From Bacteroidales bacterium (lineage in GTDB: Bacteria; Bacteroidota; Bacteroidia; Bacteroidales; JAFGXI01), in NCBI GenBank assembly GCA_016936665.1, contig JAFGXI010000024.1, forward strand, positions 7,832 through 71,831: a stretch of 64,000 bases of DNA, given 5' to 3'. Shown here in pieces: positions 4,328-11,292 of the stretch (within the stretch, counting starts at the first letter, position 1; each line of letters starts with the position of its first letter). Made by a program: the position numbers and the translations under genes. The notes beneath the pieces were generated by a model. That model was given only the letters and a program-made list of their open reading frames with translations, did no database searches and was not told where the DNA came from.

Positions 4328-5395
4328 TTGGCAAAAAAAATCACAACAAAATATTTTTTAGAGGCATCCGAAAATATCCCTATCATCGATGTTCGCTCTC
4401 CGGCAGAATACGAAAAGGCTCATATACCGGGTGCTTTTAATATTCCGCTGTTTTCAAACGAAGAGAGAGCTATTGTAGGTACAGCGTATAAACAACAAGG
4501 AAAAGAGCAAGCCATGTTTATTGGACTGGGCATCGTTGGTCCGAAAATGCGTTTGCTGGCAGAACAAGCCAAAAATATTTCTGTCAATAATCAGCTATTA
4601 GTGCATTGTTGGAGAGGAGGGATGCGTAGCGAGAGTATGGCTTGGTTGTTCAAGCAAGTTGGTATTGAATGTACCTTATTGCGTGGCGGATATAAAGCTT
4701 ATCGTTCGTATTTTAAAAACCAGTTATCTCAACTAAAAAATATTATTGTTTTGAGTGGTTATACAGGAAGCGGGAAAACGGATATCTTAAATGAACTGGA
4801 ATTGATGGGCGAACAAGTTATCGATTTGGAAGGTTTAGCTCATCATAAAGGATCAGCATTTGGGGCGATAGGTATGTCGGAACAACCCTCCACCGAGCAA
4901 TTCGAAAATAATCTTTTCGAAGCAGTAAGAAAGATGAGCCCGAATAAAAGAGTTTGGGTTGAAGACGAAAGCAAGGCAATTGGTAAAAATTTTATTCCCG
5001 ACGAGTTTTTTAAGCCAATGCGATCTGCTCCGGTTGTTTTAATTGACATCCCGAAATCTGTCAGAATAAAACGACTTGTAGAAGAATACACAAATGTTCC
5101 TGGCGAATTGCTTATATATCATTTGAACCGAATCGCTAAACGATTAGGACCATTGCAAACTAAATTAGCCATCGAAGCTGTCAAAAATAACGAAATGAGT
5201 AAAGCCGTAGATTTAAGCTTGACATTTTACGATAAAGCCTATGAATTTGGGCTGACGAAAAGAACACGTTTCTCTCTGATAAAAATTAAATTAAACGAAG
5301 ATCATCCAAAAAACTACGCATTACAAATAATAGATGCTGTTAAAAACAACGATTTTATAGATCAAAACCTAAACGAACAAATGGATTTTGGTTAA
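4328..5395 (+). CDS. selU: tRNA 2-selenouridine synthase
   Basis: N-terminal rhodanese domain with the active-site loop HCWRGGMRS, followed by the P-loop SGYTGSGKT. Length and architecture match SelU/MnmH/YbbB. The frame has no ATG near its start, so the apparent start is the TTG at 4328. Confidence 0.85.
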   Translation: MAKKITTKYFLEASENIPIIDVRSPAEYEKAHIPGAFNIPLFSNEERAIVGTAYKQQGKEQAMFIGLGIVGPKMRLLAEQAKNISVNNQLLVHCWRGGMRSESMAWLFKQVGIECTLLRGGYKAYRSYFKNQLSQLKNIIVLSGYTGSGKTDILNELELMGEQVIDLEGLAHHKGSAFGAIGMSEQPSTEQFENNLFEAVRKMSPNKRVWVEDESKAIGKNFIPDEFFKPMRSAPVVLIDIPKSVRIKRLVEEYTNVPGELLIYHLNRIAKRLGPLQTKLAIEAVKNNEMSKAVDLSLTFYDKAYEFGLTKRTRFSLIKIKLNEDHPKNYALQIIDAVKNNDFIDQNLNEQMDFG

Positions 5396-5440
5396 CTTTG
5401 CAATGCATTATAATTTGATAAAACAGACTTAGTCTGATAA

Positions 5441-5480
5441 AAAAGTGCATACTGCCTAAGTTGTACTTATGTGCTTTTTT
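5441..5480 (+). terminator. Weak terminator candidate between selU and selD
   Basis: AAAAGTGCATA...TATGTGCTTTT pairing (11 bp including 2 G-U pairs) followed by a T run. The loop is large at 16 nt, so this is only moderately convincing. Confidence 0.35.
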
Positions 5481-5503
5481 AATAATGAGATAATATATTA
5501 CGA

Positions 5504-6616
5504 ATGAAGTTTAAAACCATTGAAGGAGCTCCGCAACAAGACGATTCTTGCTCGACTACACCGGTAGATCCTAATCAAATAGAGATTCCAAAACTGACAC
5601 AGTTCAGTCCAGGTGCAGGATGAGGTTGCAAGATTTCGCCTCAAGATTTATCAACAATTTTAGCTTCGGATATTAAGTACGCACCACATCCACAGTTAAT
5701 TGTTGGTAACGATAAAAGAGACGATGCTGCTGTTTTTGACCTCGGCGATGGCAAAGCAATAATAAGCACCACCGACTTTTTTACTCCAATTGTTGACGAT
5801 CCGTACGATTTCGGAAGAATTGCTTCTGTAAATGCAATTAGCGATATCTATGCTATGGGCGGAACTCCCACTATGGCAATAGCTATTTTAGGTTGGCCGG
5901 TAAAAAAACTTCCGCTAGAAACAGCACAGAAAGTTATTGAAGGTGCCAGAGCTATATGCAACGAAGCGGGCATAGCTTTGGCAGGTGGGCACAGTATCGA
6001 AATTGGCGATCCTGTTTTTGGATTGGCTGTAACCGGTGTTATCGAAACCGCAAAAGTTAAGCAGAATGCTGGTGGCAATGCTGGTGATTTATTATTTCTA
6101 ACAAAACCACTAGGAATCGGAATAATGGCAACTGCCGAAAAACAAGGTAAAATTGAAGAAAAACATCGACAAGAAATAATTAAGTGGATGTCGACCTTAA
6201 ATAAAGTAGGACAAGATCTTTCGAATTTCGAGGCTGTAAGTACAATTACCGATGTAACAGGATTTGGTTTACTAGGCCATTTAATCGAAATATGCGAAGC
6301 CAGCGAGTTGAATGCAGTCATCGAATTTGATAAAGTACCAACCATCGATGGCCTTCAAAAATATATCGATATGGAAACCTTCCCCGGAGGTTTGTTTAAG
6401 AATTATAAAAGTTATAAACCCCAAGTTCATGAATTAAGTAACCAGCAAAAATACGTGCTATGTGATGCTCAAACCAGTGGGGGCTTATTAGTAGCCGTAA
6501 ACCCTGACCAAGCTTCTGAAGTTGTTGATTACATGAGTTCAATAAACCATCCTTTTTATCCGATAGGTTATCTTACAGAGCAAAATGATACCGAAAAGAT
6601 TGTTAAAGTGATATAA
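5504..6616 (+). CDS. selD: Selenide, water dikinase (selenophosphate synthetase); selenocysteine-containing form with an in-frame UGA at codon 40
   Basis: The ATG at 5504 is in frame with ORF 5855..6616, and the only interruption is the TGA at 5621-5623. Translation: ...LTQFSPGAG-U-GCKISPQDL..VGNDKRDDAAVFDL..IISTTDFFTPIVDDPYDFGRIASVNAISDIYAMGG. This is collinear with E. coli SelD (LTQYSHGAGCGCKISP...), and the TGA sits at the position of Cys17. Confidence 0.9.
5621..5623 (+). other. UGA selenocysteine recoding site in selD
   Basis: The TGA lies exactly at the catalytic Cys/Sec position of the conserved GAG(C/U)GCK loop. Conserved SelD sequence continues in the same frame on both sides. Confidence 0.85.
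5625..5655 (+). promoter_or_regulatory. Candidate bacterial SECIS hairpin
   Basis: It starts immediately 3' of the UGA. GUUG(5625-5628)/CAAC(5652-5655) forms an outer stem, then a 2x2 internal loop, then AGAUUU(5631-5636) paired with AGAUUU(5644-5649) (6 bp, 2 G-U pairs). The apical loop is the 7-nt CGCCUCA. Folded by eye only. Confidence 0.45.
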
Positions 6617-10162: not shown

Positions 10163-10179
10163 TTTTTCTAAGTTAATTT

Positions 10180-11292
10180 TTAACGACGACTTCTTGAACT
10201 ACTCGATGAGCTTCTGCTAGAACTGCTAGAACTACTTGATGACCCGGATCTACTTCCTCCTGAATAACTTGAGCTACTGCTGCTGGAACTTCTTGGTGTA
10301 GAAGAACCACTGTAGTTACTTCGGCTAGAAGAACTGCTTCTGGGGGCCGATGAGCTAGATCTTGTACTAGATCCACTGCTACTTGTCGAAGATGGGCGAC
10401 TTGCAGATCTTTGTTGTGTTGCAGACGAACTTCTGTTATTGCTCGACCTGTTAACAGAGTTTGTGCTTCTATTATTATTGGTCGAACTTCTGTTTTGACT
10501 AGCACTTGATCGTTGTGAGCTAGAACTTCTAGTTGAAGTTGAGTTTGATCTTGGACTATTTGTACTTGTGCTTCTGCTAGCATTTGAACGATTTGTTACA
10601 GCATCGCGCGAGCTTGTTCCGGAACTGCTCCTTGAACCATTTCTGTTAGGATTGTAAGTTCCTCCGGTAGTATTACGTCTTGCGTATGTTGCACCTTGGT
10701 ATCTTGAATTTCCGTAGTAATAATCGTATCGATTGTTAACACCATCGTAATATCCATTCCAATACCCATTGTTGTAACCACTCCAGTACGATCCTCCATA
10801 ATAATAAGGATATCCATAGTAATAATAGCTAGGGTAATACCATGGGTCGTACCACGGATTGTAAATATTATTATAGCCATATCCCCAAGACATTCCCCAA
10901 TATCCGGTGTTGAAACCTATATACCACGAAGGTCTATAATAATCAGAATAATAACTATCACAATAACCATCTCCAAATCTTCTCAATCGGGCACTGTAAT
11001 CATCGTAGTAATCTCCATTTTCTTCGACAAATTCACCATTTTCGTTTTCGTAATAGTTGTTGGTAATGTATGCTTCTCCATCAGGATTACTATACTCCTG
11101 ATCAGAATTTTCTTCGATACTCGACTCTTCTTGGTTTTCCTCAAGAGTATTGTATACCATTTTGTTGGTTTCCTTAATCTCATCTGAACTATAATACAGA
11201 GGATCGTAAGTGTTGGTGTTCATGCTTGTAGAACAGGCCGAAAATACTCCTGCTCCAAGAACTAAAAATGCTATTTTGTAGAGATATTTCAT
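10180..11292 (-). CDS. Lipoprotein with acidic, Tyr/Gly/Trp-rich and Ser/Arg-rich low-complexity segments
   Basis: Lipoprotein signal peptide with Cys20 (GAGVFSAC). Residues about 31-100 are D/E/N-rich. Residues about 95-205 are extremely Y/G/W/N-rich (WYYPSYYYYGYPYYYGGSYWSGYNNGYWNGYYDG). Residues 218-370 are almost entirely S/R/N/T. The gene ends 17 nt upstream of the barrel gene on the same strand. Confidence 0.7.
   Translation of the reverse strand: MKYLYKIAFLVLGAGVFSACSTSMNTNTYDPLYYSSDEIKETNKMVYNTLEENQEESSIEENSDQEYSNPDGEAYITNNYYENENGEFVEENGDYYDDYSARLRRFGDGYCDSYYSDYYRPSWYIGFNTGYWGMSWGYGYNNIYNPWYDPWYYPSYYYYGYPYYYGGSYWSGYNNGYWNGYYDGVNNRYDYYYGNSRYQGATYARRNTTGGTYNPNRNGSRSSSGTSSRDAVTNRSNASRSTSTNSPRSNSTSTRSSSSQRSSASQNRSSTNNNRSTNSVNRSSNNRSSSATQQRSASRPSSTSSSGSSTRSSSSAPRSSSSSRSNYSGSSTPRSSSSSSSSYSGGSRSGSSSSSSSSSRSSSSSSRSRR
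10183..10641 (-). repeat. Ser/Arg/Asn/Thr low-complexity coding tract (C-terminal about 150 aa of the lipoprotein)
   Basis: The translation is runs of S interrupted by R/N/T. Serine is encoded by a mixture of AGY and TCN codons, so this is not a simple trinucleotide expansion. Confidence 0.8.

Follow-up and report, generated by a model that had tools for sequence, protein, structure and literature searches.

The window analysed here is a stretch of 64 kb (64,000 nucleotides, nt) from contig JAFGXI010000024.1 of a Bacteroidales bacterium, and its plus strand carries a selD gene, encoding selenophosphate synthetase (SelD), in which a single in-frame TGA codon is proposed to specify selenocysteine (Sec). 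The features of this gene are as follows, with the selenocysteine insertion sequence abbreviated as SECIS and the open reading frame as ORF.

5504..6616, plus strand: complete selD coding sequence, 370 codons and a stop, with the proposed Sec at codon 40 (translation and full-length SelD model matches)
5549..5551, plus strand: Cys16 codon, within an N-terminal extension of about 20 residues that is limited to subclade A of the Sec-type SelDs
5621..5623, plus strand: TGA within the frame, proposed to encode Sec (U40), at the place of Cys17 in E. coli SelD and kept as TGA in relatives
5633..5635, plus strand: ATT used as start in NCBI record MBN2669333.1 (cluster look-up and sequence)
5648..5709, plus strand: candidate SECIS-like hairpin (-15 kcal/mol, z = -3.38, with 1 of 200 shuffles as stable)
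5855..5857, plus strand: ATG of Met118, the start of the mechanically listed ORF and of an identical Logan gene call

Reading frame, family membership and public annotation of selD

The plus-strand frame from 5504 to 6616 is open throughout from the ATG at 5504 except for one TGA at 5621-5623, which is codon 40 of the translation and is set in ..LTQFSPGAG-TGA-GCKISP.. or, in a longer form, in ..IPKLTQFSPGAG-TGA-GCKISPQDL... In the mechanical listing of ORFs, selD is represented by 5855..6616 only, a product of 253 amino acids (aa) starting MGGTPTMAIAILGWP, and 117 codons are lost. A preliminary description of this DNA had given the same positions for the ATG, the TGA and the ORF start, all of which hold, and had claimed that the 117 codons upstream of 5855 belong to SelD, a claim borne out by the full-length match to SelD models. 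With codon 40 set to Cys for the profile searches, the 370-aa translation scored 485.9 bits against NCBIfam NF002098 (cut-off 299), with positions 5-346 of the 347 in the profile falling on residues 28-369, and 417.3 bits against TIGR00476 (cut-off 125), the family to which the preliminary description had proposed to align it. The AIRS domains PF00586 and PF02769 match on the C-terminal 253 aa, and the DDAAV, TTDFF, SDIYAMGG and TDVTGFGL motifs are all conserved in the alignment.

The phmmer alignment with E. coli SelD (PDB 3U0O) reached E = 2.7e-111 over residues 30-355, and since query residue 30 is paired with chain residue 7 of 3U0O, codon 40 corresponds to Cys17 of GAGCGCK, which confirms the earlier placement of the TGA at the catalytic Cys17 position. 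The Aquifex aeolicus SelD structures 2YYE/2ZOD were also matched in this structure-sequence search by phmmer. The glycine-rich N-terminal loop of the family, GAG[U/C]GCK with Sec or Cys at 17 and Lys at 20, is present as SPGAG-TGA-GCK, and we take Cys17 and Lys20 of the E. coli enzyme to be essential. The two proteins share the GAGxGCK loop, the conserved Asp motifs and the AIRS and AIRS_C domains, whereas the E. coli gene has a Cys codon (TGY, that is TGC or TGT) at the place of the TGA and is without the N-terminal extension found here.

Between the TGA and Met118 the selD of the window holds no in-frame ATG, GTG or TTG, so the conserved residues 41-117 could not be made by ordinary re-initiation. 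Moreover, when both strands of the 64 kb were scanned for pairs of long open stretches with one TGA between them, only the selD site and an antisense artefact in rho were found, which places the TGA-split selD far beyond chance.

The public record MBN2669333.1 at NCBI, which in the cluster look-up shares 90% identity or more with the C-terminal 253 aa, has a length of 327 aa, is encoded on a contig of 126,767 nt and begins MSPQDL; its ATT start at 5633 lies four codons past the TGA, directly after UGA-GGT-TGC-AAG, and the catalytic loop is missing from it. The NCBI pipeline stretched this record upstream as far as the TGA permitted, without a selenoprotein call. The public call on an identical Logan contig of 11.4 kb is also 253 aa long, and the nearest database relatives (75-83% identity) are mostly N-terminally short, with lengths of 305, 314, 317, 322 or 253 aa. 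The catalytic residue is lacking from all the public calls found (253 aa in Logan, 305-322 aa in the relatives and 327 aa at NCBI), and selenium-trait pipelines relying on such annotation would misjudge the lineage; selenoprotein genes have been described as "usually misannotated" (PMC4561486).

The annotation given by the gene callers and by NCBI would, if taken as it stands, describe a shorter SelD that starts past the TGA, either at ATT 5633 or at Met118, with the upstream 39 codons forming a separate peptide or being left untranslated. Such a protein is very improbable, as a start at Met118 drops the conserved core residues 41-117, a start at 5633 drops the Sec/Cys17 position together with the Lys of GCK, and the downstream starts picked by gene callers in the relatives differ from one to the next (305, 314, 317 and 322 aa) and are not conserved. 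In addition, ..KLTQFSPGAG is conserved in-frame in every relative; the preliminary description had considered that relatives might begin at the position of Met118 with nothing conserved upstream, which is not what they do.

Conservation of the TGA codon among relatives

The TGA was observed in 21-22 distinct relatives, and TGC or TGT occupies the aligned codon in 78 other loci, the in-frame UGA being thus aligned with Cys in homologues. The TGA-type set includes four metagenome-assembled genomes (MAGs) at NCBI, whose fetched DNA shows the same TGA and a conserved in-frame N-terminus (GCA_027064025.1, GCA_022729875.1, GCA_974003235.1 and GCA_020719325.1); the Marinifilaceae MAG L020 (CAXXRT010000031.1), with merely 57% identity and also TGA; and 18 more contigs that were recovered by a scan of JGI metagenomes for the pattern (S)PGAG-TGA-GCKI. 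A scan of a genome collection with SelD, on the widely conserved pattern IVDDPYDF, gave, among the matches listed, only relatives of at most 60% identity. The protein alignment of the TGA-type genes is gapless over 122 codons spanning the TGA, and synonymous pairwise diversity amounts to 0.51 over the 12 codons that precede the TGA and to 0.36-0.40 over the 20 that follow it, indicating that both flanks of the TGA are translated in-frame and are under purifying selection. In the codons just past the UGA, synonymous variation is not clearly lower than across the gene as a whole, except for an invariant TCG Ser codon at +5.

A nonsense change of TGY to TGA in a decaying or mis-read selD would take a single third-position change from TGC or TGT, and the public annotations do show a shorter gene, but the same TGA is found in 21-22 independently assembled and divergent sequences, and identities of 75-83% rule out that they were copied from a single contaminated assembly. 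The gene has neither frameshifts nor additional stops, and the protein is conserved on both sides of the codon with synonymous variation, so that a pseudogene or sequencing error is extremely unlikely. The view of the preliminary description that recoding fits better than a pseudogene is upheld by a TGA that is kept in these orthologues, within a gapless alignment whose synonymous sites vary.

The 44 long ORFs of the window end in TAA (37), TAG (5) or TGA (2). The two genes that end in TGA soon run into other stops and the lone in-frame TGA among the 44 ORFs is that of selD, which indicates the standard code. A lineage-wide reassignment of UGA to sense (codes 4 or 25) would agree with the rarity of TGA stops in the window and with three ENA calls on short contigs (P0001, P0002 and P0014) that print W at the critical position, calls that are best explained by the gene caller picking code 4 on short contigs. 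Against it stand the two genes that do end in TGA and the other genes of the window, all intact under code 11, and the probability of such a reassignment is close to nil. As a separate observation, the rarity of TGA stops would lower the cost of leaky UGA decoding. The search for a second selenoprotein gene in the window and in the TGA-type loci returned antisense artefacts only.

Within the Sec-type SelDs, subclade A consists of the window gene and twelve others (L002, L005, L090, L093, L094, L098, L100, L101, L104, L106, L107 and L108), which have in common the N-terminus MK(F/I)xK(I/L)... The Cys16 of their N-terminal extension is invariant in 13/13 SelDs of this subclade, where it stands in an acidic context (..D/E-x-C-S/A..) about 24 residues N-terminal of the Sec position. 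Both the extension of about 20 residues and Cys16 are absent from the alignment in subclade B, in L020 and L095, and in every Cys-type relative. Cys16 could serve as a partner thiol for Sec40.

The closest Cys-type genes, L111 (75% identity) and L113 (72%), resemble the gene of the window in their selU-selD pair and in a near-identical protein, and differ from it in a TGT for the TGA and in AGU GAA, which replaces the Ser-Asp codons UCG GAU (5666-5671 in the window) common in TGA-type genes. In a rough neighbour-joining tree, L111 and L113 are placed beside subclade B and L020 falls among Cys-type Marinilabiliales-like genes, positions that suggest that Sec and Cys may have been switched repeatedly within the clade. 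Sec/Cys switches are known for SelD (PMC13188914).

RNA structure downstream of the UGA and the decoding of the codon

The segment from nt +22 to +96 has a mean folding z of -2.15 in 21 TGA-type genes, all 21 of them negative, compared with mean z values of -0.03 in 76 Cys-type genes and -0.12 in 25 low-GC Cys-type genes (Mann-Whitney p = 3.5e-7), a contrast that overstates the number of independent observations, since the TGA-type sequences are mutually related. Other 74-nt segments of the TGA-type genes show mean z values from -1.08 to +0.48, and in the closest Cys-types, L111 and L113, nt +22 to +96 are unstructured (z = -0.8 and +1.3, respectively). A stable RNA structure downstream of the codon is thus specific to the TGA form, which is the proposed Sec form of the gene.

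In the window, the candidate hairpin at 5648-5709 starts 27 nt after the U of the UGA and is made up of the pairings 5648-5658/5699-5709, 5661-5665/5694-5698 and 5668-5671/5688-5691. Its outer helix is kept with compensatory changes in the 13 subclade-A genes (the window and 12 others), where the (S/A)-T-I codons at +27 to +36 pair with the L-L-V-G codons at +79 to +88 and compensation is seen at third positions, such as +32/+83, which is A-U, U-A, C-G or G-U. In this subclade 81.9% of cells are paired, against 21-49% with slid partners, and the covariation score is 0.212, against 0.157 ± 0.017 in shuffled alignments (2 of 500 shuffles as high), on the same sequences from which the structure was derived. 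Subclade B (n = 5) has a different element, a local 10-bp hairpin (+31 to +40/+48 to +57) with the loop AAAAUCG and a consensus energy of -13.8 kcal/mol, whose apical loop begins 37-38 nt past the UGA, at the upper spacing edge of the published bacterial SECIS (bSECIS) model, and is without a 5' G. In our reading of these folding models, an RNA element specific to the Sec form probably exists. With two differing TGA-specific structures and no hairpin on the bSECIS consensus, the clade could serve, on a small scale, for testing SECIS predictors.

The 70 nt directly after the UGA of the window fold no better than shuffles (z = +0.69), and a short hairpin containing the UGA itself (UGAGGU..GCCUCA) was rejected on this value and on its lack of conservation in relatives. 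Separately, codons +30 to +39 (about 5711-5740), which encode KRDDAAVFD, are nearly invariant as AAA AGA GAC GAT GCT GCT GTA TTT GAC in 17 sequences that vary elsewhere. This run lies just 3' of the candidate structure and could represent codon bias or a further RNA constraint.

Several results weigh against reading the UGA as Sec, along with the relatedness of the TGA-type sequences and the scoring of the subclade-A structure on its own sequences. The published bSECIS model (PMC13188914) asks for an apical loop 3-9 nt long whose two initial positions contain G, on a stem with 4 or more bp, 16-37 nt away from the UGA, and a hairpin of this kind was found in 0/17 core TGA-type genes, including that of the window, even with the energy limit eased to -3 kcal/mol. 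Weak candidates were observed only in the distant TGA-types L020 (loop GGA, 20 nt past the UGA) and L095 (JGI contig Ga0265294_10000003, 452,750 nt; loop AGAU, 31 nt past the UGA), both canonical-looking and both from genes outside the core TGA-type clade. RNAalifold, run over all TGA-type genes, found no common structure; the two subclades pair differently. Neither the 64 kb window nor any of the fetched Bacteroidota flanks contained selA, selB or tRNA-Sec, and most SelD-positive Bacteroidetes in a 2016 survey possess the selenouridine trait only.

As to the single searches for the machinery, ARAGORN and Rfam gave no tRNA genes and no Rfam matches in the window, and about 60 related loci were likewise negative for tRNA-Sec with ARAGORN. 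The tblastn search with SelA and SelB of E. coli and Verrucomicrobiales, covering 115 loci and about 2 Mb, matched only in L026, which is a Verrucomicrobiales locus; each fetched locus is about 20 kb long, a few per cent of any genome, so the absence of Sec machinery from these loci says little. Neither selA nor selB was present in the selD flanks of Spirosoma and Dyadobacter, and a tblastn search with SelB against plasmids gave no Bacteroidota match. In a scan of IMG/VR, two SelB genes of unknown origin were noted, one of them at 26% GC: L116 1399-3303 (IMGVR_UViG_3300008680_000276) is a genuine SelB (290 bits with TIGR00475, whose cut-off is 242) in a contig catalogued as viral, where it adjoins an ISL3 transposase, and it is unrelated to the window.

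The absence of Sec machinery from the fetched Bacteroidota DNA and of a canonical bSECIS from the core TGA-types would also be expected if the UGA were read through by a near-cognate tRNA-Cys or tRNA-Trp, stimulated by the RNA structure, giving a low level of Cys- or Trp-containing SelD in a lineage that uses selenium for selenouridine only. The same holds for the survey of Peng et al. 2016, in which Bacteroidetes with SelD mostly have SelD and YbbB only (PMC5029168), and for the rarity of TGA stops (2/44 in the window), and there is a precedent in insects, the SPS1-UGA of Hymenoptera with its overlapping RNA structure (PMC4561486). Were it so, the gene would be a prokaryotic counterpart of SPS1-UGA, and selenium would be used only for tRNA selenouridine. 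We consider this read-through unlikely, because the fetched DNA amounts to a few per cent of any genome, no conserved non-Sec read-through in a prokaryotic SelD was found in the literature consulted, and the codon stands exactly at the one SelD position known to carry Sec. Furthermore, TGY is one step away and was reached in L111 and L113, so that the kept TGA argues for an advantage over Cys. The hymenopteran gene itself is homologous, its UGA stands at the corresponding codon and an RNA structure overlaps it on the downstream side, but it is eukaryotic, belongs to species that have lost selenoproteins and encodes a product with a non-SelD function, and it serves here only as an analogy.

The UGA at 5621-5623 very probably encodes Sec in selenophosphate synthetase. 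Sec would be inserted at the catalytic position within the N-terminal glycine-rich loop GAG-U-GCK, by means of Sec-tRNA(Sec) and SelB and guided by the RNA structure within the coding sequence at 5648-5709, which would act as the SECIS, and the genes selA, selB and selC would then lie elsewhere in the genome. The resulting SelD would supply selenophosphate to the neighbouring SelU, for 2-selenouridine in tRNA, as well as to SelA for its own Sec, and would in this way support its own synthesis. Insertion of Sec may proceed through an atypical SECIS, with a 5' arm 27 nt past the UGA and a different pairing in the two sister subclades; this we hold as a tentative proposal, plausible though somewhat short of probable, and it would imply that SelB recognises RNA in an unusual way. 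Some selenoprotein genes depart from the consensus bSECIS model (PMC13188914).

Known Sec-type SelDs and the gene neighbourhood

Among bacteria, Haemophilus influenzae and Aquifex aeolicus have Sec-containing SelDs. The SelD family, with the motif UxxK, has been verified by experiment as a selenoprotein family and is the second most widespread one in prokaryotes (PMC13188914). It ranks with the commonest selenoproteins of ocean metagenomes (PMC2398784), and Sec is present in 19% of prokaryotic SelD genes, in every case at this position (PMC4561486). Genomes in which a Sec-containing SelD is the only selenoprotein and accompanies ybbB/selU have been described (PMC1794560). The preliminary description had called Sec decoding patchy in Bacteroidota, in agreement with the six Sec users reported by Peng et al. 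2016, which are Chryseobacterium taeanense, Cyclobacterium qasimii, three Dyadobacter and Spirosoma linguale, with 0-1 selenoproteins each (PMC5029168).

The gene of the window resembles the Sec-type bacterial SelDs (TIGR00476, UxxK) in the same Sec position within the glycine-rich loop, in an early UGA, in an RNA structure of the coding sequence downstream of it and in adjoining selU/ybbB, as such genes often do (PMC1794560). It differs from them in its uncultured Bacteroidales-type host, in a structure that departs from the bSECIS consensus by starting 27 nt past the UGA and by its long stem and large apical region, and in the extension of about 20 residues with an invariant Cys that subclade A adds. 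The clade is a taxonomic extension of a known selenoprotein family and no new kind of system, and it is modestly unusual in an RNA element off the bSECIS consensus and in a subclade-specific extension with an invariant Cys. Uncultured Bacteroidales and Marinifilaceae-like lineages would thereby have a Sec-type SelD and hence probably the complete Sec-decoding trait. This fits a situation already described, where the Sec trait is maintained by a SelD that contains Sec and also serves the synthesis of selenouridine, and a Sec-enzyme that would serve both SelU and SelA matches, by comparison, the situation described by Zhang et al. 2006.

Upstream of selD the following features were observed.

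4328..5395, plus strand: selU, or mnmH (ybbB), encoding tRNA 2-selenouridine(34) synthase (NF008750, 375 bits against a cut-off of 241)
5424-5436 and 5438-5481, plus strand: two hairpins in the spacer between selU and selD (fold of 5396-5510)

The selU gene ends 108 nt upstream of selD, which is the linkage that marks the selenouridine trait, and the Pfam domains Rhodanese and AAA_SelU were found on the selU of the identical Logan contig. The selU-selD order is conserved in relatives, among which the longer order rho-pgi-selU-selD also recurs. Farther upstream of selU lie pgi, rho and an AdoHcy hydrolase fragment, and an AMP-binding enzyme is encoded downstream of selD. The window has a GC content of about 35% and encodes a type-9-secretion sorting domain, and among the SelD relatives the best-named ones come from Bacteroidales or Bacteroidota MAGs. 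In the spacer, the hairpin at 5438-5481 consists of an A-run, a 14-bp stem and a U-run and ends 22 nt before the selD ATG; by its predicted fold it looks like a bidirectional terminator or an attenuator. The small hairpin at 5424-5436 was flagged as terminator-like on the minus strand.

Elsewhere in the window, on the minus strand at 10173-11292, Logan calls genes of 136 aa and 94 aa in one frame, as against a listed ORF of 370 aa in another frame, with no Pfam match. In L005-L007, a PIN-domain gene and its 78-aa partner stand between selU and selD, and a pair of nucleotidyltransferase and substrate-binding genes follows selD (in L005, 8985-9606 and 10966-11705 mark both inserts). These inserts look like toxin-antitoxin-type cassettes flanking the selenium genes.

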